DNA of 64,000 nt from a virus (Duplodnaviria > Caudoviricetes): IMG/VR virus record IMGVR_UViG_3300033417_000006, positions 4,281 to 68,280 of that record; one strand, given 5' to 3'. The notes beneath the pieces were generated by a model that was not told the origin of the DNA, did not search any database, and saw only the letters and a list, made by a program, of their open reading frames with translations. Of the stretch, positions 4,120 to 63,958 are shown piece after piece (the first letter of the stretch is position 1; each line of letters starts with the position of its first letter). Position numbers and translations under genes: made by a program.

Positions 4120-4310
4120 ACTTTTTTTGCCAGTCGTTGTCTGATAACCTCGACGGCCTCCTCGCGCGAATCCGCCACGAATGGCGGTACGACCTCAACT
4201 ACGAAATCGTTTCCGTAGCAGTCCTCGGTATAGTCTTTGTGATCGCCAAACCACCGCTTCACTTGGATGCTTCCATTTTGATGCAGGTATCCCCACCACA
4301 TTATGTTCAT
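4116..4310 (-). CDS. Hypothetical phage protein
   Basis: SD-like AAAGGAA upstream; stop overlaps next start. Confidence 0.55.
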   Translation of the reverse strand: MNIMWWGYLHQNGSIQVKRWFGDHKDYTEDCYGNDFVVEVVPPFVADSREEAVEVIRQRLAKKV

Positions 4311-29215: not shown

Positions 29216-29237
29216 TTTAGTGACTATAGTCAAATGA
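29202..29237 (+). promoter_or_regulatory. Hybrid leaderless promoter of tnpB
   Basis: TTGACA-N17-TATAGT-N7-ATG; palindrome TGACTATAGTCA over the -10. Confidence 0.75.
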
Positions 29238-30378
29238 ATGATAACCTACGAGTTCAAGTTGAGACCGAACAAGGCCCAAGAAGCGGCTTTATGGCTTCAA
29301 CTACAACTCACGCGAGAGCTTTACAACACCGCGTTGCAAGACCTAATCGCGCATTACAAGGAAACCGGCAAGCACTTGAACTTATTCACGCAAGACAAGG
29401 CGCACAACAAAGCGACGCACCCGCAAATGCCAGCCGCTCTTGTGGACACGACACTCAAGCGATTGCATCTGTCGTTCGCGCACTTCTTCCGGCGTTGCAA
29501 GGAAGGAGCGCGAAAGAAAGGTTTCCCGAGATTCAAACCAGCAAATCGTTGGCACTCTTTGCATTTTCGGGATGCTGCCGGCAATGGAATTTCGGATTGT
29601 TATTTCAAGGCAGGGAAAATTCTCGGGGGACGCATTCGATTCAACCGGCACCGGGATATAAAAGGTGTCATCAAGTTCTGCCGGGTGCTACGAAAGCCGA
29701 GCGGCTGGATTTTGCAAGTGGTATGCGAAACGAAGTTGGAGCCGTTGCCGAAGACCGGCAAGAGCATTGGGCTGGATTTCGGCGTCAGGCATCTGGTGAC
29801 AGACAGCAACGGCGGCAAGGTGGGGAATCCGAACCATCTCAAGAAATCATTGCGCCGGTTGCGAGTGGCACAACGGCGGATTGCACGCCGCAACAAAGGC
29901 AGCAATCGTCGGAAGAAAGCGTGCCGAGTGGCTGCGCGGATTCACGAACGGATTGGAAACCAGCGGCGCGACTACTTGCACAAGACGGCAAGGCATTACG
30001 TCAACGGTTACGACACTATCTGTGTCGAAAATTTGAACGTGTCGGGGATGGTCAAAAACCATCACCTTGCGCGGGCAATCACAGACGCATCATGGACGAT
30101 GCTGCGACGGTTCATCGAGGCCAAGGCTGCAAGTGCCGGGCGCACGGTGATCGCGGTGCCTCCGCATTGGACATCCCAAAAGTGTTCATCGTGCGGGGAA
30201 ATCGTACAGAAGGCGTTGAGCGTGCGAACGCACGTTTGTCTGCACTGTGGTTACTCGGACTGCCGAGACACCAATGCGGCAAAGAACATTTTAAGGCTGG
30301 GATGCAGCCTTCAGGGAGAGGTTGCAATAGCGACCTCGTTGAACTGATAAACATCGGATTTATCCGATGAGCAATCAC
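29207..30378 (+). mobile_element. IS200/IS605-family solo tnpB element (no tnpA)
   Basis: Preceded by TTGAC; subterminal hairpin CATCGGAT-TT-ATCCGATG (30352-30369); ends TCAC; removing it restores an in-frame end to the upstream gene. Confidence 0.8.
29238..30347 (+). CDS. tnpB: RNA-guided endonuclease TnpB
   Basis: N-terminal YEFKLRPNKAQ; RuvC GLDFG / VENL / RDTNAAKN; zinc finger CSSC...CLHC. Confidence 0.95.
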   Translation: MITYEFKLRPNKAQEAALWLQLQLTRELYNTALQDLIAHYKETGKHLNLFTQDKAHNKATHPQMPAALVDTTLKRLHLSFAHFFRRCKEGARKKGFPRFKPANRWHSLHFRDAAGNGISDCYFKAGKILGGRIRFNRHRDIKGVIKFCRVLRKPSGWILQVVCETKLEPLPKTGKSIGLDFGVRHLVTDSNGGKVGNPNHLKKSLRRLRVAQRRIARRNKGSNRRKKACRVAARIHERIGNQRRDYLHKTARHYVNGYDTICVENLNVSGMVKNHHLARAITDASWTMLRRFIEAKAASAGRTVIAVPPHWTSQKCSSCGEIVQKALSVRTHVCLHCGYSDCRDTNAAKNILRLGCSLQGEVAIATSLN

Positions 30379-48613: not shown

Positions 48614-51600
48614 ATGCCAAGCACAGACGAAGAGATATTAGCGGAAGCCCGAAAGCAATTGCATGGGGGCGATCCTCGCACCGCAGAACCTACGGTGGCA
48701 GGACAGGGTCATCCGTCACGGCAATCCATTTTTGGGGTCAGGACTTCCGTTTCCGATGATGATGAGATATTCGCGGAAGCCCGGAGGCAGCAGAAAGCCA
48801 GTGCTATAGGTTTTCGTGAGGCGGCGCGGCGGGAATGGGAAAGAACACCTGGGGAGGAGCTTGTTCCATTCGGTGATGTTGGGAGACTAGTGACAGGAAA
48901 ATCCCCGACCTGGAAATTATATCGCGCCGCAGAAGTGGTTAGGCAAGGAGATGAAACTGATCCAGAATACGAGAGATCGTTGTTGTATCTCAAGGAATAT
49001 CAGGATGAACAGGCGCGTATTCGGGATGAGAGCAGGCGTAAAACTTTCATGGGCAAAGTCGGCAGCGGTATTGTGGGTATTGCCCCGAGATTGCCGAAAT
49101 ACCTCGTTGAATTCGGAGTGACAGGACCCCTCTACACCCTGGGAAGAAAGGTGGGATCGAAGTTATTGGGGAAGGGCGCGAAATCAGCGGTGAGCAAATT
49201 CGCGGGGCGCCAACTCGCAAGAGCCACTGGGGCGGCAGCACAAACGCCAGCGGTGATGGCAGGTAGTATCGGGGAAAGAACCATTCAAAGGCTGACTCCG
49301 TATTTAAATATCACCGAGGATGAAACCGGTAGATTGGAAGCCGCGTTTCAAGATACCGACGACAATTTTCTAAGCGCATTAACCAAATCCTTTGGAGAAG
49401 GATTCATTGAAACCGCGACAGAACGGAGCGGTTTGCATTTGATGAAGCCATTGAATAAGGCCGCGACAAAGCTCGGTTTGAAGCGGGCCATAACAGCGCG
49501 TTGGCTTGAAAAGAATCCCAATGCAACTGTGGATGATTTAATAACCAAACTTCGATCTAAGACGGCTTGGCATGGACCGATTGCCGAAATTCTCGAAGAG
49601 GAAGCCGGAAAAGCCGCTAGGGCCGGAGTCGGGCTTGAAGAATACAAACTGACAACATTGGATGAATTGGTTGCCATGGGGGCATCGTTTGCCCTGCCGG
49701 AAGCCGGGTTTCGCGGACTCCGTGGATTGAGCAGGTTAGCAACAATGAGGAGGGATTATGCCACTGATGAAAGGGCGGAGCAGGAAGGTCGTGAGCCGGA
49801 ATATCGCCGAACTGAGGCGGAGCGGGAGGAAGAAAGGCAAGATAGGGAACGTGCGATTGCGGAACAAAGAGCACGAGAGACGGGTAGCCGCGGCGGTCGC
49901 GCTACGCCAGGCGGGCCTGTCGAAGTTCGGGAAGAAGTGACGGAACCGAAAATCCCGATCATTGGCGGCGTCAACTCCGCTGATCTTCGTAACATTGCCT
50001 CTGCCCTTGAACCCGCTATTGATCGTGGGTTGGCAGCCGCGAAGGAGCGCGGGGATGTTTTCGGTGAAGCCAGGTTATCGACGAGACAAGGGCTTGTCCG
50101 GCAATACCTCGATGATCCAAGTCCTGCCAATGCAAAACGATTGGGTCGAGTTCTTGGACTTGAAATCAACGAAGATGCCGAGGGTGTACCGACGATCTAC
50201 GAGGCACTCAGGGATCGTGGGGCAACAATGGTGACGGAGGTAGAACGACCCAAAGGCGAGGCGAAGGCTATCGTTGAGTTCGAGGATGGATTGTGGTGGA
50301 GAACGGAACCAACGGGATTCCGGTATGGCCCATTTGGGAGTCGCGCGGATGCCATGGGAAGGGTGGCTAAACCGCCTAGCAAACCAGCCCCGGCCGCCGC
50401 TGAGCGTGTTGAAGAAGTGACGGAGGACGAGACTCAACCCAAGCCACCGGAGTTGATGCCGTTGGCAGGACTTGGGGCAGAAGAACTTGCGGAGGCGCTC
50501 AATCTCTATGCCGATAAATCTGCTGGATTTGACAAACGATCAGGCAAAACGGTTGGTTTTACCAGAACAACCAGGATAACTGCTGGCCTGCCGTTGTGGG
50601 AGAACATGACGCCGGACGAGCGCATGGCTGAGTTCAGGAGTCGCGCGCAGGAAGATTTCAAAAAGGCGTCTGAGGAAGCTGTAAACCCCGTGGAATACAT
50701 GATCGAACGGGCATTAGACCCATTGGACCCGATGTCGGGCATATATAAGATTCTGCTGCTGAATCGTGGGGCCGCAATCGAAGGTGGCAAGATAAGGTTA
50801 TCTCCAGAGCTTGAGTCGCTGCGGGCGGGCCGATCACTTCCAGGGGCAAAGCCTCCGCGTCCAATTATTTCTGGATCGCGCTGGTCCGCTGTAACACCAG
50901 TCAAATCCGCTGGCGTAGATGGTGTATGGGGCGTGGTTGATGCCGCTGATTTGGTGAGTTCAAACGATAGCGGTTACGATCAGAGGTTTCAGCCAAGGGA
51001 TCGTCGAAGAATGGCGAGTCGCGAGCAAATCGCGGAAATAGCTTCCAGGCTGCAACCGGAACGGCTCGGCGCATCCGAGACTACGGATTTAGGGTCTCCA
51101 ATTGTTGATGAACACAATCAAGTGCTTTCAGGCAATGGAAGGTTGGAGGCCATACGGCTTATTTACGATTCTCAGAGCGAGCGAGGAGCCGAATATAAGC
51201 AATTCGTTATGCGCGAGGCCCAAAGACTTGGGGTTGATCCAGCGAAATTAGAAGGGATTAAGCAACCCGTGCTTGTAAGGCGAGTTACGAATTTCGGCGA
51301 GATAACCAAGGGAGAATTTGCAAGGCAAAGCAACGAACAACAAGTCTTGGGGATGAGCGACGCGGAGAAGGCCAACCGTGACGCGGCTATGCTTGTTGAT
51401 AATCCAGGGTTGCTAGACATTTTTCTTCCCAATGAAAGTGGTGATGTTTTAGCCGCAAGCAATCGTGAATTTTTGAATAAGTTTATTCAGGGAACAGGGG
51501 ACCGGGCAACGCTGCTTAATGCCGATGGCAGTTACAACGTTAAGGCGCTCGGGCCGCGCGTGAAAGCGGCTGTATTGGGCGCACTTTTAGGAGCCGAAGA

Positions 51601-54600
51601 CAGAAACACAATTTCAAATTTAGTTGAACGCGCTGTTGATTTGAACATTGCGAACGTGGCTTCCGCGCTTCAAAACGCCGCGCCACGATTGTTGAAGTTC
51701 CGCGGCAATCCGTATGACCTCAGCCCGATTTTGAACCAGGCGATAAAAGATTTGGTAACGATCAGAACAGAGGGGCGGAAAGCGGAGGAATTTCTTGGGC
51801 AATCGACATTATTCGGGGATGCCCAACGGACCGCTGAATCGGATTACCTGCTTTTACAGTTTGCAAAACTCGGAAGCTCGAAGCAGATTGCAGAAGGACT
51901 GACTCGGTATGCTGAGCTTGCATCGAAAATTGATGTCACAACGCCGGACATATTCGGAGCTAAACTAGCAACCAGGGAAGAATTATTACAGCAAGCTTAT
52001 GAACGCAAACAAGCACCCGAAGCCAGCCAAACCGGTCTCCCGCTGGCAAAACCTCCAGGACAAGCTCCGCCAACCGGGCCACAGGCTCAACCTGCTGCAA
52101 AAGGCGTTCCAACACCGCCCGGTCCAGCCGCCGAAGCACCGGCGGTAACGCCGTTTGGTTCAGAGAATGTTTTGATCAGCGCACAACGAGCGGAAGAACT
52201 TAAGAAGCGCATCAAGGACAAGCTGAAGAACGTAAACATTGGAATTGACCCAACCATCTTCTCTGATGCCGTTCAACTCGGCGCATATTATATCGAAGGA
52301 GGGCTCCACCGATTTTCCGACTGGGCTGCCAAAATGTTGGAAGATTTAGGAGACGTAATCAAAGATCATCTAAGGAGTATTTATGAAACCGCCAGAGTCA
52401 CTATCGAATCGCCAAGCGGCGAAAGCCGTAGCGGACAACCCCCCGGTCTTCAACCCGGACTACTACCTCCAGGAGAGCGCATCGTCACCGCCCGACCTGA
52501 GCATACCAATGCCGCGGATGAGTCAGTCATCCCAAAAGAACTCCTCCCGCACCTTGATCCGCACCAGAGGCAAGGCTCTGCGACTGCGATAAGAAGCATG
52601 GAAGTCCGCGGCGGCATGTTGCTCGCCGATGCCGCTGGAGTTGGTAAAACTAGGCAAGGAATCACAGTCGGAAAGTACGAGGCTGATCGCGGATCAAAGG
52701 TCGTGATTGTAACGCCGTCGATGGTCATAAAGCAGAACTGGAAAAAGGGAACGTTTGGTGGCAGCTACGCCTACGACTCCGGCCAGATGGGCGTCAAGAT
52801 CAGGCTTGCTAGGGATGGCAATGTCAATCCAGGCGAGATCGGAATCACAACGCATGAGAACTGGAAGGACATAGCAGCGAACACCGACGGCAACACGGTT
52901 CTGATCATAGACGAGTGCTTTGTGCCTGGAACTAAAATCAAGATGGCCGATGGGACTCTGAAGGAGATCGAGAAAATAAAACCTGGCGAGTTTGTAAAGA
53001 ACGCATCTGGGTGCGGAGAGGTGGAAGCCGTAAGTAGGCGTTGGGCTGGATCGTTGGTAAAGATCGCTACGGAGGCTGGCAGCGTGATATGTACCCCAAA
53101 TCACCCGTTCCTTACACAACATGGATGGATTAAGGCTGGACAACTTAGCCAATCACACTATCTTAAAACCCATGATGAAACAATGCGAATGGTGTGGGGT
53201 TCGGTTTGTGGGGAAAATCGACCAGCCGAAACAGAGATTCTGCGGGACTTCCTGTTCGGCGAAATGGAGGACCAGCCGACCAGAATCGAAGGCGATGTAT
53301 TCGACGCCGCAATTCCTGAAACATCTTTCAGAAGGTTTGAAACGGGCGCACAGCTTGAATCCAAAACTTGCGGAGGCGGCTTCACGGCGTATGACGACGA
53401 ACAATCCAATGCGGATAGATGGAGTTCGGGAAAAGGTGTCAGCCACGCTTCAACGAATCGGCCACGGCCCGTCGGTCAGGGGTGGGAACGGAACTGGCCC
53501 AACAGCGGCGGAGCAGATTTTGTTGAGTGCTCTACCTGGGACGAAGCACAACCACGCCGTTTCGCTTGGAAAGAGAACAAAGGGCTATCCGACATGCTAC
53601 AAGGTCGATGTAGCCATGCCCGGAATCAGGATGGCAATAGAGTGCGACGGGTTATCCCATGGCGCTTTTGCGCGACAACTTCAGGACCGAAAGAAGGAGG
53701 CGAAACTGTTGGAATTAGGGTGGATAGTGTTGAGAGTGTCCAACAAAAGGATTTTACACGATACGGCGGCGGTAATTCTGGAGTTGAAGTCTATAATCTT
53801 CAGGTTTCAGGACATCCAAGCTACGTCCTATCCAATGGTGCGGTAGTCCACAACTGCCACTTCCTTAAGAATCAAAGCCAGCGATCACAGCACGCAACTC
53901 GTGCGATTGCAAAAGCGAAGTCGGTCCTGTTCATGTCCGCAACGCCTGGCGACAAACCTGAGCACATCTATTATCTCGCTCGCATGGGGATCATGGAAGG
54001 AAAGACGGTCCAACAGCAGCTTAGCGACCTTGGCATGACACTCGTAACCATCGACAAGATGGTTAAGGAGGCTGATGGCACTTGGCGAAAGCGACGGATT
54101 ACGTTCTGGGCTCCAGACCAGCGCGTTACTGATACCCAACGGCACGAACGGTTCAGCGCCCTGTTCGACCGAATGACCGCAAGTGGCGCGATGCTGAAGC
54201 GTGAGATCAGCATGAAAGGGACTCATGTCCAGGTGTTAAAGATTACGCTGCCTCCCGAAGCTCACGACGCACAGCAACTCATCATTGACACGGCTTTGCG
54301 AGCTTACCATGAATCGCATTTCGATGATGTGAAGGGACTTAGGAAAGCCAACATCCTCATGCACCTTCGGCGGCAACAGGAACCATTCAAGATTGCCTCA
54401 GCGGTGATGCTGGCACAACGCGAGTTGGCTGCTGGGCGGCAGGTGCTTATTTTCGTGTCGAGGGTCAATGAATCTGAGGCCGGCTTTAACGAGTACGTGA
54501 AGACGCTGTCTGGAGAAGTCGAGACGGTCCGGCATGTTGCTATGACGAGCGAAGGAACCGCTAAGTTGCTGCGCGAGGCACTCGAAGACGCCGGGATTCA

Positions 54601-57600
54601 CGACATAGCCGAGATTCATGGCGGAGCCGAGCAAGGCGCGTTGGAGGCGTTATCAGATTACCAGGGTGGCCGGAAGCGGGTGATGATTGCGACCATCGAG
54701 AGTGCAGGCACCGGGATTAACGCCGATGACATCGTCGGAAACCTACCCCGGTCCATGATCGTCGTGACTGCACCGTTTGACGCCGTCAGCAACGTTCAAG
54801 CGGCGGGTCGTATCTGGAGGCTCAAGACGCTGAGCGGCTCGAATTATTTCTTTCTGTTCGGAGACACCTCCGTTGACGATTGGAACGCCGACATCATCGG
54901 ATCGAAGATGAAACAACTCGGTGCCATCGTTGAGGGCCAGATTAGAAAACTGGATATTTCGGACCCGGACCTTGACAGCACAGACGATTACCACGAAACG
55001 ATGCGAGGTCAGCCGGCTGGGCCGTCAACGGCGGTGGTGCTCGAAAAGTTTCCGCAGTTGGAATGGAAACCGTTCCAGACCAAAGGCGGCAGGCAGATGT
55101 TCGTTGCGTCTGCAACGCCTGCGTTCTGGAAGTGGTGGAACGCGAACGGCAAAAGGGATAATGCGCTCGGCGTCTCGGTAACTAAGTATAAAGAGCAATG
55201 GCAGGTATGGTCGGACAAACCTTTGATTGTCAGAGGCCAGTTGCGCGAGGAACAACCGCTTTTCGGAGCACCGGAGACCGTTGAGCAACAGAAAGCCAGG
55301 GAATTAGCTGAGCAAAAAAGGCGCGCTGAAGCCGAAGCCAAACGTAAACTGGAAGAGCGCGCGTCGAAAAAACTAACGGGCACAGCCGGAGACCTCGGTC
55401 AGAAAGACCTTTTCGGCGGCGAAACCGATCTTTGGGCCATGAAAGAGGCGAGTGGCGACCAACCAACGCTTGATGGCATAGCCCAAGATATTTATGGCAA
55501 AGACTATGATGATTTGACCCAGGACGAAAAAGGTGTTACGGATGTTACCTATGAAGCCGAACTCAGGGTATCCTCCAAAAAAGAAACCCGGCGAGAAGGG
55601 ATATACCCCGAGGCAGGTGAGCCGATTGTCGAGACCCGCCCCATACGACAAGCCCGCGCCCAAACCACTGCTGATCTTAGCCGAACCCACGAAGAACTGC
55701 TTGCGGATGCAGAGCAATTAAGCGCGGATGTTACGCGGCTTAAACATGAACTTTTTAACGCCAAAGGTCAGCCATACGAAAGCAGGCTTCAGGCGCAACT
55801 GGAATCTGCCCAGGCCAATTTGCTGGAAATAACCGGGGAATTGAATTCCCGAATGGACCGGTTGCGTGGAATACCACGCTGGGTCGAACTTCAAACAAAG
55901 AGCAAGCGCGGCAGCATAACATCCGCCGAAGAGCTTGAATTAACCGGCATCCGAGCGCAAGCAGATCGGGAAGCTCGATCCGAACGTGCGAGTGCCACAC
56001 AAGCGCAATTAGGTGAACCGCGAGCCATGTTTTACTCCCGGCTGACGCGAACAGTCGAGCAATCTCAACAGGGTCGGGCCACGGGCGCACAGTGGAAGGC
56101 CACGATCAAAGGCAGCAAACTCGGGGTAAGCCAAGGCGAAATGGATTTGGTTGGCATCGAGGATTTGGAGGACGGCAAGACCTACACGAAACAGGAAGTA
56201 CTGGATTATCTCAAGGCGAATGAAGTGGTGGTCAAGGATGTGACGCTGGGAAAAGAACCGGTAGCTTCGTTGCCACTCAGGCGGTTTATGTATCGAGAGG
56301 GCATTGAAAGCCCCACCACCACGGATGAGTGGCTGAACCTTTCAGGTAGGATTGAAGACAAGGCAAAGGCGTTGTCAATGCGAGGCGACGACAGGCAGGC
56401 GGCAGAGTTCTTTGAAATGGCAGAAGCCGCGAACAGGGCCGCCGAAGGACTTGATCCTGAAACCGGAAGCACGCAAGGCCAAACCCGCTTCTCCACCTAC
56501 CAGCTTCCCGGCGCGAAGAAGGGGAGTTATCGCGAAGCGCTGTTGACGGTGCCGGAAGATGCTGGTCTTTCGAAGATGACAGACGCGCAAATGCGGGATT
56601 TTTACCAGCAGGCATTTGGCGTCATGCCTACTGAGGCGATGGATACGGAGACCCTACGCAAAGACATCGAGAAGAAACTACGCTACCACGGAACAGATTT
56701 CGTTGAGCGCATGGGTGGAGTTAAGTCGCCGATGACGGTTTGGCGCGACGGCCACTCCCAATTCTCCGACATAGCCAATCCAATAGTCCGCCTCCGATTC
56801 AACGAACGCACAACCTCCGACGGTAAGCGGATGCTGTTCCTTGAAGAAATCCAACCCCCGCTAAAAGGCGAGTTCGAGAAGATGCCCGCGCTGTTCCAGA
56901 AGAACTGGCGGGAGATTGCGTTTAAGTATGCTTTGAAGTTAGCCGCATCGAGCAGCGAGAGCCTTGACCTTCAACGCCTCAGAAACCCAAAGAGCATTTG
57001 GGAACTTGGTGAGAATGTCTTTGGGCGAGAAATGGCATCGGCGATGCCGCTGGAGGTTGTGGATGGTGGAGTGCTGTCCGCTTTTCATCACGACCAAGTT
57101 CTCCAGGCGGTTGTCTCGAATCTTCCCGTTGACGTGGTGAACAACCTCACACGACTCAAGATTTCTCCCGATAGCCTGCTCCGCAATCCATCTATGGTCT
57201 TTGAGACACTTCCCGTCTCTGCTCGTAACTCGATAGCGCGAGGGGTTCTCGGTGCGATGCGCGAGGTTGGCGCACTCCTTGGAGCAAAACTGGCGAGTGG
57301 CCTCAATCGAGGGGTAGATGTGGAAATCCTTCCCGCACTGATGGCAAGCCATTTGGAGGTCAGAGAAGTTGTGGGAGCGCTTGCCCCTCAATCCCTTTAC
57401 CATGATTTCAATGCGCGTGGGGGCTTGGAAAATCGCCCTGCATCGCTTGGAACAAAACAACCCGCGCCCGTTTTTTATGTAACAGGAAGGGGCATAGAAA
57501 GGCTTCCGACAAACGGGGCAGAGTTTTTGAGCACCGTTCTTCCGGCAAGCGGTAGAGCAGAATCGGGCGTCGGCGCGACTAGGCCGAACGCTGAAGGTGG

Positions 57601-60600
57601 AGGAGCACGTCTCGCAGATGTTCTGGACTGGCATAACAAAATCCTACGCGAAACAGGCAACTCAAAGCAAGGAGATTTCACACCCGAAATTTCAGCACTT
57701 GGCTGGACCACGGGCGAGCAGCAGGCGGAGCGGTATGATTTGAGCAAGCAAGTTGACGCCATCAAGGTCAACGTCAGAACCGATGGCAACTTCAACATTG
57801 AAGTTAAGCCACCTGGAAATCTCGGATTCAGAGCCATCGCATCTGGTATAAAACCAGGCGAACTGGAGAACTATATCGGGAAGGATTTATCTCGGAAGGT
57901 TTTAGAAGGATTGGATTCGGCATCGGAATTTGTTTACGAAGGGGTTAGCCTCAAAGTCGGTGGTGAGGGCCTGACAAAACTCTACGATGTGGACTTTCGC
58001 AACGTCGTCAACAACCTGCCAGCGGTGAAGAAGTCGGGGCAGAAGGTCGGGACGGCGGAGATTCCAAAACCCTCTGGAAGGCAAATCTCCGAAGAGAATC
58101 AGTTAGGAAGGATGAAGGAAGGAAGCTGGGTCGTTCAAGAAGAAGGTGGACAGTTTCTCTATGGAACACCATCCGAAGCGCAAGCAACTGCATGGGCAGA
58201 ACGCCAAGGGCTTAAAAATTACAAAGTCTTGGAGAATGATAAATACGGAGAGACCGATTTAATCCACTCCCTCACCCTGACTCCGCAAATTCGCGAATCC
58301 GTCATGGGCGGGCAAGCACTGTTTCAGTTGCCAGCGGGTTCCAAAGGATTGGCCAGCACTCAACAACTCATAACGCAACAAATCAAGGCGAAGCGCGGCA
58401 TCATCGAGCAGGCGCCGGAGATCGCGGTTGGATTGGAAGACATTCTTGCCATGGTTGAAAGGAGCGATTTGCACTCCGCTGTCAAAGGTGTGCTGGTCAA
58501 CTTTCTGCGAAAACCATTTGCGAAGAAGCTGGATTTGAGCCGGTTGACCCTGGAACTCCGGGATTATTTGGATCACGGTTATTCCGGCGAGATCATTGGG
58601 AGCCTGATTCGAATTGGTCGAGACATGGTCACGCCAACAACGTTACCGCATGAGATCGACCATTTCTTATTCAATTTCCTGCCGCAAGAGAGCCGTGACA
58701 TCATCGAAGCCGAGCGACGCAGAAGGTTGGAGGCAAGGGCCAGGGAACTCGGGATTGACTTGAAAGATTTGCCCGTGGATTTGGTGGCGGGCATGATGGA
58801 GTCCGAACATTTTGCGGAAGCCCTTGCGGCTGGGGCGCTCCCTCGATCACTTTATCCATACATCAATGCCGCAGAGTTTTCGGCTTGGATTACCAGTGCC
58901 GAGGCGGAACTTGAATACGCGCAGCGCGGGGCGCTCCGTGACATCATAAACACCATCATGGATTGGTTACGAGGTTTGATGGATGGCTTGAGGCGAATGG
59001 CGGGTTTTACGCCGTCATTCGAGCAGGTGATGAGAGAAAAGCTCGCGGGCCGGTACATGAACAGTGCCGAGAGCGGATCGGCATTTGATAAGACCCGAAG
59101 GGCATCATTTGCCGAGGACCCCAAACATGCACAACGTTTGGTTGCACGAGCCAAAACAAGGGGCGAAGAGGCTGAGAAAGTCGAGCGTCAACTTATTGCA
59201 ACCCAGGTTGCGGCTCCGATTAAATTCATCGAAAAACATGGTCCCAAGGATAATCCCGTTGTCTCACGGATGTTGGGATTATTCGATATGCAGAACATCA
59301 TGGCGGCATCGGAAACAAGTGATGCCCCGGAATATCGGGAGTTAAGGGAGCAACTGAAAAACACCGCCTATTTTCACGTAGCGGCGTGGGAGGTCGGGGC
59401 GCGGTTTCATGTGCAGAAACAGCGATGGCAGGAAATCCTTGATGACAGGGATGTCTTGGAAAAAGAAATAGGGAGTCCTGGCTTCAAGGCAAAGCTGAAA
59501 CGGCTATCGGAAACTCAACTTGCCGAGGAAGCCATAACGGATGGGATAAAGCAATTCATGGCATCATCGTCGGCGGCGGTTCAAAAGGCGGTGACGAGAA
59601 TGAAGACGGAGGCATTGAGTGAAGCTGAATTGGAACGGTTGATGGCCGAGGTAAGAGACGGAGAATCAAGAAAAGAATACGAGGCTGCAATTCGCCAGGC
59701 CATCAAGGATATTATCAGGATTTTGCCTTCCGAAAAATTGTCGCAACTTTATGACATCGGCGAGCACCATGAGTTGGAGTCTGAATATAACCGGTTAAAA
59801 TCCGAGTTGTATGGCGTGGAAAAGACGACGCAACCCATGGACCCGAACATTGTCAGGTGGGCATTCGAGGCCATGCGGGTTGCTCCGAGAGAAACCCGGA
59901 AGATCGCGGTATCGAGGTTGATTCAAACCAGCCGTGAATTCTCGAAGGAACTCAGTGATTACGAAAAACAGGTTGTGACGGAAATGGAGGCATCGCCACG
60001 AAAAGCCGTGACGAAAATGTTGGAGAAACAACGGACATTAACCCGGAAACAACAGATGTTGCAACTTGCTTTCGAGGAGTTGCACAAGGACTTGCAGAAG
60101 AAGATCAGGGATTACGGGAACCATGTGAGCGCAGGCGCGGTTGTCGAGGCCATTTTTGTCGATGCAGACGTAAGAGCGTATGAAAACACGGTGAATGTTG
60201 ACGGTGGCATCGAGGCCCGCCCGATGGCGCGTGTTCAGGTAAATGGCGAATGGATCAACGTCAAGGATTTGCATTACGACGTGGTTTCCGGCAACCCGAT
60301 CTTCGTGAGGCCCAACGGACAATTATTGCAAGTGAACATAACCGGGGATGTGAAGCAATTCGCGGCGGAACGGGAGAAGCTGCGGGCATTGCTCCAGGAA
60401 TGGTATGATTGGAAAGATGTTCAGGACAAATTGGCTCCCGAGGTAAGGGACCCGCACTACCAGTTTTTTCTCAACACAATATCTGCGATCAATCATATCT
60501 ATCTCTCGACGCGCGTGAGCCAGCCCGCGAGCGCGGTGGCGCCTGCAAATATCCTGAGCAACCAACCATTGAGCGATTGGGATATGCCACGATTTTTGAT

Positions 60601-63600
60601 TGACGATCTTGCAAACAGGATTGGCGGCGCCGTGAAAGTTTTGGGCCAGAATTTCAACAGGGTTTTCCTGCATTTACGGGCGATTCTTGCCGATAACGTT
60701 TATAAACAGAAGAATTTAGCCCGCCGCGCGGTGAACAGTTTGGGTCTAAAAAAGGGCAGGTCATGGGGAGAAGCTTACATGGTGATGTATGACAAGGTTC
60801 TGAAACCATTGGCGGCGATGGCGCAAAGACCGGAGGCTCGATTCGAGGTCGGTTACGAAATTGTCGATGGTTACAAGGTGACACCTGAACTCCTGCAATA
60901 TCTGGAATGGCAATCCAAGATTGCGGCGCAAGCCTTCAATGCCGTGCAAGAATTGGTGCCTGGAGAGCGACCGGGCCTGGCTTTTACCCCGGTGATCGAG
61001 GACGCCGTTCTGGGATATTCTTTCTTCGGAAAATCAATTCCTGTGAGTCGTTACACACTGCCGTTTGGCGGGTATAGCAATGATGCTCTTGCCTTTGGCC
61101 GGGCCTATGCCCAGGCGAAACTGGAAGGTGACAGGGGCAAACAGATGCAATTGCTCAAGAACAACTGGGAATTGTTGGCATCGTATATTGTTGATCGGGC
61201 GAGCATGGCCCGGGTGGTATCTGAATTTGAACCCGCCTATGAATTGTTGGCGGAAAAGATAAGGGCAGGGACCATCGAGGAGAAAAGCTTTGATTGGGTT
61301 GCGAGCCGGATAGCCGAAATCATGCCGGCTGAAACCGAGGCGGAAATAAGCGAGGAAGAACATCTTGAAAACATCGGGGAAAAACTGGTGTCGGAATTGG
61401 ATAACCTCGTTAATTTCTTCAACAAAATTGAGGGAGAGAAATCCGCAACGGTCCATATCAAGACGCCGGACAAAAAGAATTCATTTACGGCGCGTCGCCA
61501 TGACCAGACCTTGCCCTATTACTTCTTGGATTATGGCTGGCGAACATCCGGCAATTTCCTGAACTTCATGTACAACGGCCATACCCATGCCTACGAGCGA
61601 TTCGCGCATGGCCTTGAAGCCGTGCTGAAAGATTTGCAACGGCAACAATCCGAGTTGACGACGAAGTATAAGGAAAGAGCGGAGAGACTCGGCATAACGG
61701 AGGAACGATCGAGGAAAGAGCTTGTGAATGAAAACAAACTCGCTTTTCTCAACGGCCAGACCTTTGACCAGTATTGGGGTTTGGAGAAACGCATTCGGCA
61801 ACTTAAGAAAGCGATTCAGAACACCATGGAAGTTTGGGCCGGCGGTAACGACGCCGAGATGGACATCAGGGCTTACATGCGATTTCAGCGCAGCGTGATT
61901 GGCGGAATTCTGAGCGGGCCGGCGACGCTTATACGAAACGGCGGGGGATTAGCTTACCTTGGGAATGTTTTGGCGAGGACCATGAGGAGCGGCGTTGAGG
62001 CCGGTGGGGTGGCGGCATGGAATATCATTTGGAACGGCATGTTCAAGTATGTGCCATCGGCGGCTTTGGGCGTGGCGAAGATCGGGGTTAAGCTGCCGGG
62101 ATCGGCCTATACATTTCTGAAAACATTGGCAACGACCAGGGACGTTCAGATGTCCGTGGTGAAAGCTGTTTCACCCTTGATCCAAGAATTGTCGAAGAAT
62201 GTTTATAGCAGGATCGAGGATTACAGGACCATGGAAGAAAATCGGTTGATGATGCCAATTGATAGCGTCAATGAATTCGAGGCGAAAATATTCGATTTAG
62301 CCAATGCCGGCCTCATTATCGAGCGACGCCGGGGCCTCATGGAAACCACGGCGCTATCGTTGCTAGGTTTCTTCGACGACTTCGTTCTGACGGCGCTGAC
62401 AAAACCTGTGTTGCCAAGGCTCGGCGATGCCAGCATTAACAGCGCTGCTCTAGCCTCTGGGTCGACGGTGTTGAATCGAATCGAGAAACGGTTGCGGGTG
62501 CTCTTCGAGCAATGGAAGAAAAGCGGGGCCATCGAGACGAGATTTAATTTTACCGACAGGAACGATCCAAGGAACGTGTTTGCCGGGCAGGAAATATTTC
62601 CAGGAAAAGTTGAGACGTTATCAAGACAAAAGATGGCTTTGTTGGAGCAGTATTTCGATTGGACAGGCAAGACTTTCCACGAGGCCGCCTATGATTTCAT
62701 CAAGGCATTGCATGAGGGGCGCGAGGCTGAATTCATGGATAAACACGCAAGACTTCAGTTTGCGGAACAAATCGAGCAAGAGATCAATGTCGCCGGGCCG
62801 TTAAACCGGCCGCAATGGACTCAAAAGGCGGGTTTCTTCAATCAGATCATGGCGCCTCTCATGGGCTGGAATGTTCATGCTTTACGAACATTTCCGAAAG
62901 TGTTGTCTCGACCCGGTGTGAATCCGCATACCAGCCGATTGGTGATGTGGATCACCATTGCCACCATGGTATTGCCAGTGGTTATAGCCTTGAACCTGGC
63001 TCAAGACACAGGTCTCGAAGAATTGATCCGGTTATTCAGCAAACACGGATTAGGAATCGAAAGGCCGACGCGCCAACCATGGGAACGAGAGGGAACCCGG
63101 AGCCAAGCCATCGCCACCTTGATTGCCGCCGTAAATCCCGTGCCGTACCTGGCAACGGTAGTCAACACGGCTCTGAACGATATGCCCAACAGGGCGAGCT
63201 ATGACATCAATCCGGTGATGATAAGCAAACTCAATGACGTGGTGACTTATATGGGGGGTGTGGTCAATACCGGGGACCCCTTGTATGGATTGAATTATCT
63301 CGTGAAAGGGTTCCTGCCGGTATCAGAGGCTTTTCTGAACAGGATACCGTGGTTACGGGGAACTGCAGAGGCCCTGAGCGCGCGGCGCCTCATGACGAGA
63401 TTCGGACCGCAGGACCTTCTGAGGGAAAAGGTTGGGGGCGGCGGCATGTCGCGATTGGCGACACCGTTGACACCTTATGCCGATCGAATGCTGAACGCTG
63501 CCATGCAAGAGGATTGGCCGGAATTCAACGCGCAGTATGCCGAGGCGGTCGAAGTCGCCCGGGAATTGGGCCGTGACGAGCCGGAGGAGACGGTACAGGA

Positions 63601-63958
63601 CGCCTTTCTTGGCAGGAACCCATACAGCAGGGCATTCCGACAAAAGCTCTCCCAAAGCCAACGTAGCGCGTTTATGGGCAAGCTAGGGGCAGACCAAAGG
63701 GCTTTGGTGGAGGGTGTGGAGCGTAAATTCAGGCGTGGCGCGGATTTGTTGGGGCGAAAAACCAGTTTTGCCAAGGAAGATGAATTTGCGACTGTGCCGG
63801 CCTTGGCCATGATTGCGCCTCGCTACACGACCAGGGGCTTGTCACGACGACGCTCAGTTTTCGCCAGGGGCCCAATCGGGCGACTCGGGAAACCCAGTGC
63901 CAGGTATCGGCGCCGTGGCCTTTCCAGAATGGGGCGCCGCCCCAAGCTTAGCTTCTAA
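48614..63958 (+). CDS. 5114-aa polyvalent (DarB-like) virion/ejection protein: ParB-like domain, SF2 helicase (intein-containing), HExxH metallopeptidase-like motif, helical C-terminal region
   Basis: QPRDR...LGSPIVD...VLSGNGR (ParB-like); LADAAGVGKT, IIDE/CH, SATPG, AGTGIN, QAAGRIWR (helicase); PHEIDH. Confidence 0.85.
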   Translation: MPSTDEEILAEARKQLHGGDPRTAEPTVAGQGHPSRQSIFGVRTSVSDDDEIFAEARRQQKASAIGFREAARREWERTPGEELVPFGDVGRLVTGKSPTWKLYRAAEVVRQGDETDPEYERSLLYLKEYQDEQARIRDESRRKTFMGKVGSGIVGIAPRLPKYLVEFGVTGPLYTLGRKVGSKLLGKGAKSAVSKFAGRQLARATGAAAQTPAVMAGSIGERTIQRLTPYLNITEDETGRLEAAFQDTDDNFLSALTKSFGEGFIETATERSGLHLMKPLNKAATKLGLKRAITARWLEKNPNATVDDLITKLRSKTAWHGPIAEILEEEAGKAARAGVGLEEYKLTTLDELVAMGASFALPEAGFRGLRGLSRLATMRRDYATDERAEQEGREPEYRRTEAEREEERQDRERAIAEQRARETGSRGGRATPGGPVEVREEVTEPKIPIIGGVNSADLRNIASALEPAIDRGLAAAKERGDVFGEARLSTRQGLVRQYLDDPSPANAKRLGRVLGLEINEDAEGVPTIYEALRDRGATMVTEVERPKGEAKAIVEFEDGLWWRTEPTGFRYGPFGSRADAMGRVAKPPSKPAPAAAERVEEVTEDETQPKPPELMPLAGLGAEELAEALNLYADKSAGFDKRSGKTVGFTRTTRITAGLPLWENMTPDERMAEFRSRAQEDFKKASEEAVNPVEYMIERALDPLDPMSGIYKILLLNRGAAIEGGKIRLSPELESLRAGRSLPGAKPPRPIISGSRWSAVTPVKSAGVDGVWGVVDAADLVSSNDSGYDQRFQPRDRRRMASREQIAEIASRLQPERLGASETTDLGSPIVDEHNQVLSGNGRLEAIRLIYDSQSERGAEYKQFVMREAQRLGVDPAKLEGIKQPVLVRRVTNFGEITKGEFARQSNEQQVLGMSDAEKANRDAAMLVDNPGLLDIFLPNESGDVLAASNREFLNKFIQGTGDRATLLNADGSYNVKALGPRVKAAVLGALLGAEDRNTISNLVERAVDLNIANVASALQNAAPRLLKFRGNPYDLSPILNQAIKDLVTIRTEGRKAEEFLGQSTLFGDAQRTAESDYLLLQFAKLGSSKQIAEGLTRYAELASKIDVTTPDIFGAKLATREELLQQAYERKQAPEASQTGLPLAKPPGQAPPTGPQAQPAAKGVPTPPGPAAEAPAVTPFGSENVLISAQRAEELKKRIKDKLKNVNIGIDPTIFSDAVQLGAYYIEGGLHRFSDWAAKMLEDLGDVIKDHLRSIYETARVTIESPSGESRSGQPPGLQPGLLPPGERIVTARPEHTNAADESVIPKELLPHLDPHQRQGSATAIRSMEVRGGMLLADAAGVGKTRQGITVGKYEADRGSKVVIVTPSMVIKQNWKKGTFGGSYAYDSGQMGVKIRLARDGNVNPGEIGITTHENWKDIAANTDGNTVLIIDECFVPGTKIKMADGTLKEIEKIKPGEFVKNASGCGEVEAVSRRWAGSLVKIATEAGSVICTPNHPFLTQHGWIKAGQLSQSHYLKTHDETMRMVWGSVCGENRPAETEILRDFLFGEMEDQPTRIEGDVFDAAIPETSFRRFETGAQLESKTCGGGFTAYDDEQSNADRWSSGKGVSHASTNRPRPVGQGWERNWPNSGGADFVECSTWDEAQPRRFAWKENKGLSDMLQGRCSHARNQDGNRVRRVIPWRFCATTSGPKEGGETVGIRVDSVESVQQKDFTRYGGGNSGVEVYNLQVSGHPSYVLSNGAVVHNCHFLKNQSQRSQHATRAIAKAKSVLFMSATPGDKPEHIYYLARMGIMEGKTVQQQLSDLGMTLVTIDKMVKEADGTWRKRRITFWAPDQRVTDTQRHERFSALFDRMTASGAMLKREISMKGTHVQVLKITLPPEAHDAQQLIIDTALRAYHESHFDDVKGLRKANILMHLRRQQEPFKIASAVMLAQRELAAGRQVLIFVSRVNESEAGFNEYVKTLSGEVETVRHVAMTSEGTAKLLREALEDAGIHDIAEIHGGAEQGALEALSDYQGGRKRVMIATIESAGTGINADDIVGNLPRSMIVVTAPFDAVSNVQAAGRIWRLKTLSGSNYFFLFGDTSVDDWNADIIGSKMKQLGAIVEGQIRKLDISDPDLDSTDDYHETMRGQPAGPSTAVVLEKFPQLEWKPFQTKGGRQMFVASATPAFWKWWNANGKRDNALGVSVTKYKEQWQVWSDKPLIVRGQLREEQPLFGAPETVEQQKARELAEQKRRAEAEAKRKLEERASKKLTGTAGDLGQKDLFGGETDLWAMKEASGDQPTLDGIAQDIYGKDYDDLTQDEKGVTDVTYEAELRVSSKKETRREGIYPEAGEPIVETRPIRQARAQTTADLSRTHEELLADAEQLSADVTRLKHELFNAKGQPYESRLQAQLESAQANLLEITGELNSRMDRLRGIPRWVELQTKSKRGSITSAEELELTGIRAQADREARSERASATQAQLGEPRAMFYSRLTRTVEQSQQGRATGAQWKATIKGSKLGVSQGEMDLVGIEDLEDGKTYTKQEVLDYLKANEVVVKDVTLGKEPVASLPLRRFMYREGIESPTTTDEWLNLSGRIEDKAKALSMRGDDRQAAEFFEMAEAANRAAEGLDPETGSTQGQTRFSTYQLPGAKKGSYREALLTVPEDAGLSKMTDAQMRDFYQQAFGVMPTEAMDTETLRKDIEKKLRYHGTDFVERMGGVKSPMTVWRDGHSQFSDIANPIVRLRFNERTTSDGKRMLFLEEIQPPLKGEFEKMPALFQKNWREIAFKYALKLAASSSESLDLQRLRNPKSIWELGENVFGREMASAMPLEVVDGGVLSAFHHDQVLQAVVSNLPVDVVNNLTRLKISPDSLLRNPSMVFETLPVSARNSIARGVLGAMREVGALLGAKLASGLNRGVDVEILPALMASHLEVREVVGALAPQSLYHDFNARGGLENRPASLGTKQPAPVFYVTGRGIERLPTNGAEFLSTVLPASGRAESGVGATRPNAEGGGARLADVLDWHNKILRETGNSKQGDFTPEISALGWTTGEQQAERYDLSKQVDAIKVNVRTDGNFNIEVKPPGNLGFRAIASGIKPGELENYIGKDLSRKVLEGLDSASEFVYEGVSLKVGGEGLTKLYDVDFRNVVNNLPAVKKSGQKVGTAEIPKPSGRQISEENQLGRMKEGSWVVQEEGGQFLYGTPSEAQATAWAERQGLKNYKVLENDKYGETDLIHSLTLTPQIRESVMGGQALFQLPAGSKGLASTQQLITQQIKAKRGIIEQAPEIAVGLEDILAMVERSDLHSAVKGVLVNFLRKPFAKKLDLSRLTLELRDYLDHGYSGEIIGSLIRIGRDMVTPTTLPHEIDHFLFNFLPQESRDIIEAERRRRLEARARELGIDLKDLPVDLVAGMMESEHFAEALAAGALPRSLYPYINAAEFSAWITSAEAELEYAQRGALRDIINTIMDWLRGLMDGLRRMAGFTPSFEQVMREKLAGRYMNSAESGSAFDKTRRASFAEDPKHAQRLVARAKTRGEEAEKVERQLIATQVAAPIKFIEKHGPKDNPVVSRMLGLFDMQNIMAASETSDAPEYRELREQLKNTAYFHVAAWEVGARFHVQKQRWQEILDDRDVLEKEIGSPGFKAKLKRLSETQLAEEAITDGIKQFMASSSAAVQKAVTRMKTEALSEAELERLMAEVRDGESRKEYEAAIRQAIKDIIRILPSEKLSQLYDIGEHHELESEYNRLKSELYGVEKTTQPMDPNIVRWAFEAMRVAPRETRKIAVSRLIQTSREFSKELSDYEKQVVTEMEASPRKAVTKMLEKQRTLTRKQQMLQLAFEELHKDLQKKIRDYGNHVSAGAVVEAIFVDADVRAYENTVNVDGGIEARPMARVQVNGEWINVKDLHYDVVSGNPIFVRPNGQLLQVNITGDVKQFAAEREKLRALLQEWYDWKDVQDKLAPEVRDPHYQFFLNTISAINHIYLSTRVSQPASAVAPANILSNQPLSDWDMPRFLIDDLANRIGGAVKVLGQNFNRVFLHLRAILADNVYKQKNLARRAVNSLGLKKGRSWGEAYMVMYDKVLKPLAAMAQRPEARFEVGYEIVDGYKVTPELLQYLEWQSKIAAQAFNAVQELVPGERPGLAFTPVIEDAVLGYSFFGKSIPVSRYTLPFGGYSNDALAFGRAYAQAKLEGDRGKQMQLLKNNWELLASYIVDRASMARVVSEFEPAYELLAEKIRAGTIEEKSFDWVASRIAEIMPAETEAEISEEEHLENIGEKLVSELDNLVNFFNKIEGEKSATVHIKTPDKKNSFTARRHDQTLPYYFLDYGWRTSGNFLNFMYNGHTHAYERFAHGLEAVLKDLQRQQSELTTKYKERAERLGITEERSRKELVNENKLAFLNGQTFDQYWGLEKRIRQLKKAIQNTMEVWAGGNDAEMDIRAYMRFQRSVIGGILSGPATLIRNGGGLAYLGNVLARTMRSGVEAGGVAAWNIIWNGMFKYVPSAALGVAKIGVKLPGSAYTFLKTLATTRDVQMSVVKAVSPLIQELSKNVYSRIEDYRTMEENRLMMPIDSVNEFEAKIFDLANAGLIIERRRGLMETTALSLLGFFDDFVLTALTKPVLPRLGDASINSAALASGSTVLNRIEKRLRVLFEQWKKSGAIETRFNFTDRNDPRNVFAGQEIFPGKVETLSRQKMALLEQYFDWTGKTFHEAAYDFIKALHEGREAEFMDKHARLQFAEQIEQEINVAGPLNRPQWTQKAGFFNQIMAPLMGWNVHALRTFPKVLSRPGVNPHTSRLVMWITIATMVLPVVIALNLAQDTGLEELIRLFSKHGLGIERPTRQPWEREGTRSQAIATLIAAVNPVPYLATVVNTALNDMPNRASYDINPVMISKLNDVVTYMGGVVNTGDPLYGLNYLVKGFLPVSEAFLNRIPWLRGTAEALSARRLMTRFGPQDLLREKVGGGGMSRLATPLTPYADRMLNAAMQEDWPEFNAQYAEAVEVARELGRDEPEETVQDAFLGRNPYSRAFRQKLSQSQRSAFMGKLGADQRALVEGVERKFRRGADLLGRKTSFAKEDEFATVPALAMIAPRYTTRGLSRRRSVFARGPIGRLGKPSARYRRRGLSRMGRRPKLSF
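53137..53171 (+). promoter_or_regulatory. Leaderless promoter embedded in the intein coding sequence
   Basis: TGGACA-N16-TATCTT-N7-ATG(53172); the -10 is identical to that of recT. Confidence 0.6.
53172..53846 (+). CDS. Vsr/DUF559-like endonuclease with N-terminal zinc finger, overprinted in the +1 frame inside the intein
   Basis: CEWC...FCGTSC; YKVDVA...IECDGLSHG...QDRKKE..L..LGWIVLRVSN. Confidence 0.85.
   Translation: MMKQCEWCGVRFVGKIDQPKQRFCGTSCSAKWRTSRPESKAMYSTPQFLKHLSEGLKRAHSLNPKLAEAASRRMTTNNPMRIDGVREKVSATLQRIGHGPSVRGGNGTGPTAAEQILLSALPGTKHNHAVSLGKRTKGYPTCYKVDVAMPGIRMAIECDGLSHGAFARQLQDRKKEAKLLELGWIVLRVSNKRILHDTAAVILELKSIIFRFQDIQATSYPMVR
56939..57634 (-). CDS. Zinc-finger HNH homing-type endonuclease nested antisense inside the giant ORF
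   Basis: Three CxxC...FCSxxC modules; HRWIAEQAIGRNL...EVVHHVNG...DNRLENL...HSTIH. Confidence 0.9.
   Translation of the reverse strand: MPVQNICETCSSTFSVRPSRADARFCSTACRKNGAQKLCPVCRKPFYAPSCYIKNGRGLFCSKRCRAIFQAPTRIEIMVKGLRGKRSHNFSDLQMACHQCGKDFHIYPSIEATRQFCSKECANLAHRTENPSRYRVTSRDGKCLKDHRWIAEQAIGRNLESCEVVHHVNGKIRDNRLENLVVMKSGQHSTIHNLQRHRRCHFSPKDILTKFPNALWVSEALKVKALAARCG
57635..57670 (-). promoter_or_regulatory. Leaderless promoter of the antisense HNH gene
   Basis: TTGCTT-N18-TAGGAT-N6-ATG; same -35 as terL and same -10 as the head operon promoter. Confidence 0.6.

Follow-up and report, generated by a model that had tools for sequence, protein, structure and literature searches.

The window analysed here, 64,000 nucleotides (nt) long, covers most (positions 4,281 to 68,280) of the IMG/VR virus record IMGVR_UViG_3300033417_000006, one metagenome-derived virus contig of 68,280 bp with an estimated completeness of 75%. 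An intein lies within a giant plus-strand gene of the window that encodes a polyvalent phage protein (hereafter, the host gene), and within the intein, displaced to the +1 frame, lies a second open reading frame (ORF) that encodes a zinc finger and a predicted homing endonuclease. The helicase region of the host ORF, of the Strawberry-notch/SNF2 type, matches AAA_34 and Helicase_C_4, and the intein interrupts the DE/CH of its Walker B (DExH) motif. That this feature of the window is real, and is one member of a large, mostly unannotated family, is well supported by the evidence presented below; the coordinates are collected in Table 1.

An intein with a nuclease gene in the +1 frame

In frame with the host ORF, the intein begins with CFVPGT, contains the block B sequence CTPNHPF and ends with VVHN, followed by a cysteine in the +1 position; the flanking sequences are LIIDE on the N-terminal side and CHFLKN on the C-terminal side. 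All the residues by which class-1 inteins are recognized (Cys1, TxxH, His-Asn and Cys, Ser or Thr at +1) are present, and among 31 intein relatives, C1, H63, H312 and N313 are invariant. The Hint models of Pfam match residues 1-82 and the C end (33.4 bits for Vint, with a cut-off of 27), and a Pfam scan of the host-frame intein yields zero domains in the stretch that separates the N-terminal Hint part from the C-terminal one. In the AlphaFold2 model of the intein, the pLDDT (predicted local distance difference test) score is 94-98 for residues 1-90 and mostly >90 for residues from about 270 to 313; the confidently modelled parts are residues 1-95 and 265-313, and residues 122-262 score <50 and have next to no secondary structure. 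The model is matched by Foldseek to the gp41-1, DnaB and RecA inteins, with E values of 1e-5 to 1e-4. The N- and C-terminal parts are thus predicted to form a Hint fold, and the window intein is predicted, from its sequence, to splice in cis.

Canonical inteins carry the nuclease in frame. In the window, the nuclease is found one base later, in the +1 frame, which is open from position 53088, with candidate starts at 53121 or 53172. The product of this ORF matches DUF559 (PF04480) with 30.2 bits, compared with the curated cut-off of 20.6, and carries an N-terminal finger of the pattern CxxC...CxxxC. There are 48 full-length homologues, 200-280 amino acids (aa) in length and 35-64% identical, in which the finger cysteines and the motifs RGGNG and YKVD...ExDGxxH...DxKK...LGWxVxR are invariant. 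The residues listed in Table 1 for the catalytic domain do not vary in 22 nuclease sequences, and the window nuclease keeps all of them. Profile comparison of the nuclease family retrieves 3hrl (2.7e-13), 3r3p (0.003) and the FCS zinc finger 2w0t (0.0017). The AlphaFold2 model obtained from the family alignment (mean pLDDT 88.7) consists of a small beta finger, a helical linker and an alpha/beta core, and Foldseek matches it, with probabilities of 0.96-1.00, to 3hrl (DUF559), 3r3p (the catalytic domain of I-Bth0305I) and 1cw0 (Vsr), at a TM-score of ~0.7 on target length. By sequence and predicted fold, the +1 product is a homing endonuclease of the DUF559/Vsr-like (EDxHD) kind, and it is predicted to cleave DNA.

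The TAG stop codon of the nuclease falls 8 nt short of the last base of the intein, so that the tail of the nuclease gene overlaps the C-terminal splicing blocks. The host-frame middle of the intein is best read as a tolerated linker, a by-product of the nuclease gene being read one base early. The essentials of this layout had been recognized in an earlier note made from the sequence alone, namely a 313-aa intein that splits the helicase motif, the lack of an endonuclease motif in the host frame of its middle part, a zinc finger and a Vsr/DUF559-like nuclease in the +1 frame, and an overlap of that ORF with the C-terminal splicing blocks; each of these observations is borne out by the splicing blocks and flanks, the empty Pfam scan, the PF04480 match with the finger and the fold, and the position of the stop codon, respectively.

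Table 1. Features of the host gene, the intein and the overprinted nuclease gene (window coordinates)
Feature	Coordinates	Strand	Remarks
Host gene	48614..63958	+	Polyvalent protein, 5114 aa; ddrB-ParB domain and Sno/SNF2-type helicase
N-extein junction codons GAC GAG (Asp-Glu, Walker B/motif II)	52910..52915	+	Translation
Class-1 intein, 313 aa, host frame	52916..53854	+	Begins with Cys1, has TPNH in block B and ends in His-Asn
N-terminal Hint splicing region (intein residues 1-85)	52916..53170	+	Pfam Vint at residues 1-82; AlphaFold2 pLDDT 94-98
Sigma-70-like hexamers TGGACA-16-TATCTT, putative	53137..53164	+	7 nt before the nuclease ATG at 53172
Homing endonuclease ORF (predicted), +1 frame, 224 aa and stop	53172..53846	+	Likely start ATG ATG, 53172/53175
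FCS-type zinc finger of the nuclease	53184..53257	+	Invariant C5, C8, C24, C28; profile match 2w0t, E 0.0017
Host-frame linker (intein residues 122-262)	53279..53701	+	No domain; pLDDT <50; substitutions track the nuclease frame
DUF559/Vsr-like catalytic domain (nuclease residues 143-206)	53598..53789	+	D146, E157, D159, H163, D172, K175
C-terminal Hint splicing region (intein residues 267-313)	53714..53854	+	First strand IRVDSVESV, codons common with nuclease LGWIVLRV
Nuclease stop codon TAG	53844..53846	+	Straddles GTA GTC, which encode Val-Val in intein block G
C-extein junction codons TGC CAC (+1 Cys, then His of DExH)	53855..53860	+	Translation

Recurrence of the layout and selection in two frames

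The number of stop codons expected in the host frame was estimated by shuffling the synonymous codons of the nuclease (200 shuffles). Across the ~225 codons of the window nuclease, the host frame contains 0 stops, compared with 9.3 expected, and zero stops were obtained in 0 of the 200 shuffles; the third sense frame contains 16 stops, and the reverse frames contain 5-7. The comparison included 80 loci out of the 438 relatives found in IMG/VR alone and, from GTDB genomes, a further 26 loci. In 104 of 107 loci, no stop interrupts the frame that precedes the nuclease frame by one base, across the whole nuclease, with 2-28 stops in the other sense frame and 0-21 in the reverse frames. When profile hidden Markov models built from the Hint parts are employed, an intein is detected around the nuclease in 104 loci (94 unique), nearly all of the form DE/C...HN/C or S, and the 94 unique loci contain 0 host-frame stops in total, compared with a mean of 7.7 expected per locus. 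The arrangement that the earlier note had proposed for the window, a contiguous intein with the endonuclease as a separate +1 ORF, is therefore shared across these loci; among the ~100 loci, there are 0 cases of the in-frame form and 0 cases of the split form. The closest homologues on long contigs, L001 and L002, each have a helicase ORF (810 and 694 aa, respectively, when read from stop to stop) that runs through an intein of the form DE/CF...VHN/C or S, with the nuclease in the +1 frame.

The exceptions are free-standing copies of the nuclease, which lack the Hint flanks and act as a natural null for the stop count: there are 7 stops compared with 8.2 expected in L003/L008, and 4, in the -1 frame, compared with 10.1 expected in L070. 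The free-standing nuclease of L070 (2812-3654) carries an N-terminal extension that, around ...RKIYS..., is still similar to what Hint block B yields in the +1 frame of intein-borne relatives, and may be an escaped or stranded copy.

The window comes from a single metagenome-derived contig, as would suit an error of sequencing or assembly, in which case the nuclease would truly lie in the intein frame and two compensating indels would have displaced it. The chance of this is negligible. The artefact is ruled out because the +1 offset is common to the 94 unique loci, which come from independent assemblies, and to two finished genomes of cultured phages; furthermore, an error model would not yield a host frame that is stop-free over the whole nuclease against the expected 9.3 stops. 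The search of longer proteins returned no in-frame nuclease fusion, although this is weak evidence. The recurrence of the layout and the stop-free host frame are the grounds on which the artefact is set aside.

Selection was assessed in 18 independent pairs of related inteins that are 62-96% identical at the nucleotide level. In the N-terminal Hint part, the mismatch rates at host codon positions 1, 2 and 3 are 0.296, 0.222 and 0.403, respectively, and in the C-terminal Hint part, they are 0.198, 0.129 and 0.400, so that mismatches peak at host position 3 in both Hint parts. In the nuclease overlap, the corresponding values are 0.389, 0.237 and 0.220, with the peak at host position 1, which is position 3 of the nuclease codons. 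It follows that the middle of the intein evolves as a nuclease gene in which host-frame stops are barred, and its ends in the manner of an intein: it is the nuclease frame that purifying selection maintains in the middle, and the host frame at either end.

Towards the 3' end of the nuclease gene, both frames are of importance. The nuclease motif L-G-W-x-V-L-R-F, which is 89-100% conserved in 91 loci, is encoded by the same DNA as a host-frame strand, R-V-[E/D]-S-V-E, and this strand is a confidently predicted beta-strand of the Hint model (residues 267-275). The distance from the stop codon of the nuclease to the end of the intein takes only a few fixed values (8, 20, 44, 50 and 65 nt), and in most loci, the stop begins with the final two bases of a Val codon, GTA or GTG, that belongs to block F or block G in the host frame; in the window, the two codons are GTA and GTC.

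The same nuclease superfamily is known from fractured genes, in which Vsr-like endonuclease genes lie between the halves of split inteins, and a stretch of 6-69 bp is common to the 3' end of the nuclease and the C-terminal intein part (Dassa et al. 2009, PMC2677866). The overlap at the end of the window nuclease and the resemblance of the modelled Hint domain to the gp41-1 intein of those loci are both features that a fractured gene would share, with two polypeptides joined by trans-splicing and the nuclease gene between them. However, the stop after the N-terminal intein part that defines such loci is absent from the window and from the 94 unique relatives, and this absence is under selection; nor is a separate start for the C-terminal part needed. 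With a single ORF of 5114 aa that contains no host-frame stop, a split intein is very improbable in the window, and this possibility is set aside.

Putative expression signals and distribution of the intein-nuclease unit

Of the possible starts of the nuclease, the short one, 53172/53175, is likely the one used, because in L001, the +1 frame contains a stop 16 codons upstream of the finger. In the subfamily to which the window belongs, an ATG is found 3 codons before the CxxC, and in many other members of the family, the nuclease start follows a strong Shine-Dalgarno motif that lies within the host-frame coding sequence. In the window itself, no Shine-Dalgarno motif precedes the nuclease ATG, and the +1 frame is open from well upstream of it. 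These two features would be compatible with a nuclease that has no start of its own and is made by programmed +1 ribosomal frameshifting, as a fusion of the N-extein, the Hint part and the nuclease. This mode of expression is quite improbable given the ATG that is conserved immediately before the zinc finger in the window subfamily, the Shine-Dalgarno motifs of the other members and the L001 stop, which leaves little room for a conserved shift site; a slippery motif was not noticed either. Programmed frameshifting is thus set aside in favour of a probable initiation within the intein.

Such initiation could depend on signals embedded in the Hint-coding DNA. The string TGGACA-N16-TATCTT-N7-ATG, pointed out in the earlier note as a promoter, is indeed present upstream of the nuclease, although its presence is not above chance: it is the only such match in 3 kb, and shuffled sequences give 1.8 +/- 1.2. 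The promoter is therefore treated as putative only. The two hexamers are kept in L001 as well, and of the residues that are identical between the window and L001, 7 of 9 within the stretch of the hexamers are encoded by the same codon, compared with 12 of 39 elsewhere in the N-terminal Hint part. Across 21 pairs of inteins, host third-position variation declines from ~0.5 to ~0.28 over the 60 nt that lead up to the zinc finger, where periodicity in the nuclease frame is not clear. Both observations are suggestive and compatible with a promoter, a translation-initiation region or, in some members, N-terminal coding sequence of the nuclease. The spacing of 7 nt between the hexamers and the ATG would suit a leaderless transcript, and it can be hypothesized that homing occurs early, uncoupled from the expression of a late host gene.

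The distribution of the unit suggests mobility. When the C-extein was compared with 1.8 billion representative sequences, numerous giant homologues of the host protein were identified (47-67% identity among those examined), and none of the 29 examined has an intein at this site. Most of these 29 intein-free homologues, including 11 of the 12 closest ones, read FDEA/HALKN or FDES/HALKN where the window has IIDE, the intein and CHFLKN. With all 29 close homologues free of the intein, the insertion is therefore sporadic in the host protein family, and this sporadic distribution suggests that the insertion in the window is a fairly recent gain. A search of IMG/VR for close relatives of the host helicase found none, and the matches to the host helicase in cultured phages are confined to the intein part.

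The unit is not limited to one kind of host protein. It is also found in SNF2 helicase-methylase fusions, ResIII/DEAD helicases, large terminase subunits and a clamp-loader AAA ATPase, and in these hosts, the insertion nearly always falls on the Walker B DE or immediately behind it. This pattern fits homing with occasional jumps between similar nucleotide-binding sites; jumps between similar sites have been proposed for other phage inteins (bioRxiv 10.1101/2025.01.02.630785). Two cultured phages carry the +1 nuclease inside a helicase intein, namely Corynebacterium phage phi673, in gp43 (L112, 1775-2413), and Vibrio phage 104E43.1 (L113, 1760-2389). In the GenBank records of both, only the helicase is annotated over the layout, in agreement with the contention of the earlier note that standard annotation misses the nuclease. 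In metagenomic contigs, such as L001 (3357-5789) and L002 (5652-7736), gene callers instead call the nuclease and fragment the helicase, or else predict spurious antisense genes.

Homing endonucleases commonly decay after fixation. Such decay is reportedly also the premise of one study (PMC13619312). Hence the possibility that the window holds a fixed relic, in which the nuclease is inactive or unexpressed and the layout persists since its deletion would damage the host gene; the failure to find a close intein-bearing relative of the window host protein is consistent with it. Nevertheless, a relic is unlikely: the window nuclease keeps every family-invariant residue, its ORF is intact, its fold is predicted with confidence, the nuclease frame is under purifying selection in the family, and the insertion is sporadic among the homologues.

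Upstream of the host gene, its strand carries genes for tail fibres and virion structure, and judging by this position only, its product is plausibly a late, virion-associated polyvalent protein. A 5114-aa polyvalent protein of the virion module is an unusual host, of a type that is new for such inteins. The host gene contains another ORF of 231 aa, on the opposite strand (56939-57634, -), with matches to HNH_3 (5.9e-10) and zf-FCS (1.8e-5). The host frame is open across this ORF too, and its finger is of the same FCS type as that of the intein nuclease; it looks like a candidate for a second hidden homing endonuclease, of the type described for the ShiLan insertion (PMC11855218). Elsewhere in the window, a 378-aa ORF (29234-30370, +) matches no Pfam family at E <= 0.001.

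Interpretation and relation to known systems

Taken together, these observations make it very probable that the window contains a mobile unit, which consists of an intein and a separate +1-frame endonuclease gene and is inserted at the helicase Walker B (DE/xH) site of a giant phage polyvalent protein. Ribosomes in the host frame would translate straight through the insertion, yielding a precursor with an N-terminal Hint part of ~90 aa, an unstructured linker of ~140-170 aa and a C-terminal Hint part of ~47 aa, from which the intein would splice in cis to restore DE-CH. The same DNA, read one base later from the ATG at 53172/53175, would act as a separate gene for an FCS zinc finger, a helical linker and a DUF559/Vsr-like nuclease of the I-Bth0305I type. 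Its transcript could come from an internal promoter or be the mRNA of the host gene, and the nuclease presumably cuts intein-free alleles and so drives homing. Splicing, the activity and target of the nuclease, and its independent initiation are all inferred.

Several points weigh against this interpretation to varying degrees. Selection was measured family-wide, so that the single copy in the window could be newly inactivated. The low pLDDT of the host-frame middle is no proof of disorder. The expression signals of this copy are weak, and the promoter-like hexamers are not statistically exceptional. The missing Shine-Dalgarno motif at the nuclease ATG carries little weight because such motifs are rare window-wide, being found before only 5 of 34 putative starts, although these starts were taken from the longest ORFs and some of them are perhaps wrong; initiation led by Shine-Dalgarno motifs may be of minor importance in this phage and its host.

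A broader proposition is that sense-strand +1 overprinting represents the standard, long-lived state of an abundant phage intein family, with embedded expression signals (possibly a promoter and a leaderless mRNA) that would permit early action of the nuclease even where its host is a virion gene expressed late. This generalization is tentative and, at present, rather doubtful.

Several implications follow from the layout. It is systematically mis-annotated, either by omission of the nuclease or by splitting of the host gene in two, and therefore, censuses of phage inteins and homing endonucleases undercount a family with hundreds of members. It is also a natural case of long dual coding, over ~675 nt, with measurable selection in both frames. 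The layout fills a gap between endonuclease genes that stand alone, fractured genes that hold split inteins, and canonical inteins whose nuclease is in frame, and so bears on the question of how inteins acquire nucleases. Possible tools include the Hint parts, which resemble those of the fast intein gp41-1, and a compact Vsr-like nuclease with a zinc finger.

The earlier note knew of no description of such an arrangement, and in this general form, the claim does not stand. Contiguous inteins whose nuclease is encoded in an overlapping frame or antisense have been described since Gorbalenya 1998, which is cited for them in two recent preprints (bioRxiv 10.1101/2025.01.02.630785 and 10.64898/2026.09.14.751524). 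The first of these reports actinobacteriophage inteins with antisense LAGLIDADG, antisense VSR-like and frame-3 endonuclease VII-like nucleases, and states that VSR-like nucleases are otherwise known only with split inteins; the second describes a cyanobacterial dnaX intein with a +2 LAGLIDADG nuclease, frame-specific selection and a disordered in-frame middle. The window unit resembles these published cases in that the intein is contiguous, the host frame is uninterrupted across the nuclease gene, the predicted in-frame middle lacks structure, and the nuclease, encoded in another frame, is under purifying selection and is overlooked by annotation pipelines. It differs from them in the nuclease itself, which is encoded in the +1 frame of the sense strand and combines an FCS finger with a DUF559/Vsr-like domain, in its target, the Walker B DE/xH of several P-loop ATPases, and in the size of the family, with its hundreds of IMG/VR relatives. 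Full-text searching of the literature did not turn up any paper that describes a DUF559/Vsr-like nuclease encoded in the sense-strand +1 frame of a contiguous intein.

With I-Bth0305I and the other EDxHD enzymes and DUF559 proteins (3r3p, 3hrl; Taylor et al. 2011, PMC3239194), the window nuclease shares the predicted catalytic fold and the conserved acidic and His residues; unlike I-Bth0305I, which is encoded in a group I intron, it has an N-terminal FCS zinc finger and a helical linker, and its gene is overprinted on an intein. The ShiLan insertion (PMC11855218) is a non-intein analogue in which an endonuclease gene is likewise hidden inside a host ORF that stays open, but the window insert has complete intein splicing blocks, which predict that it is removed from the protein. 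The fractured genes of Dassa et al. (PMC2677866) have in common with the window the nuclease superfamily, the phage setting, the overlap of the nuclease 3' end with the C-terminal intein part, and a gp41-1-related Hint domain. In those loci, the host gene is divided into two ORFs, whereas in the window, the host frame is unbroken, with zero stops, and is kept so by selection: the window layout is the unbroken counterpart of the fractured-gene arrangement.

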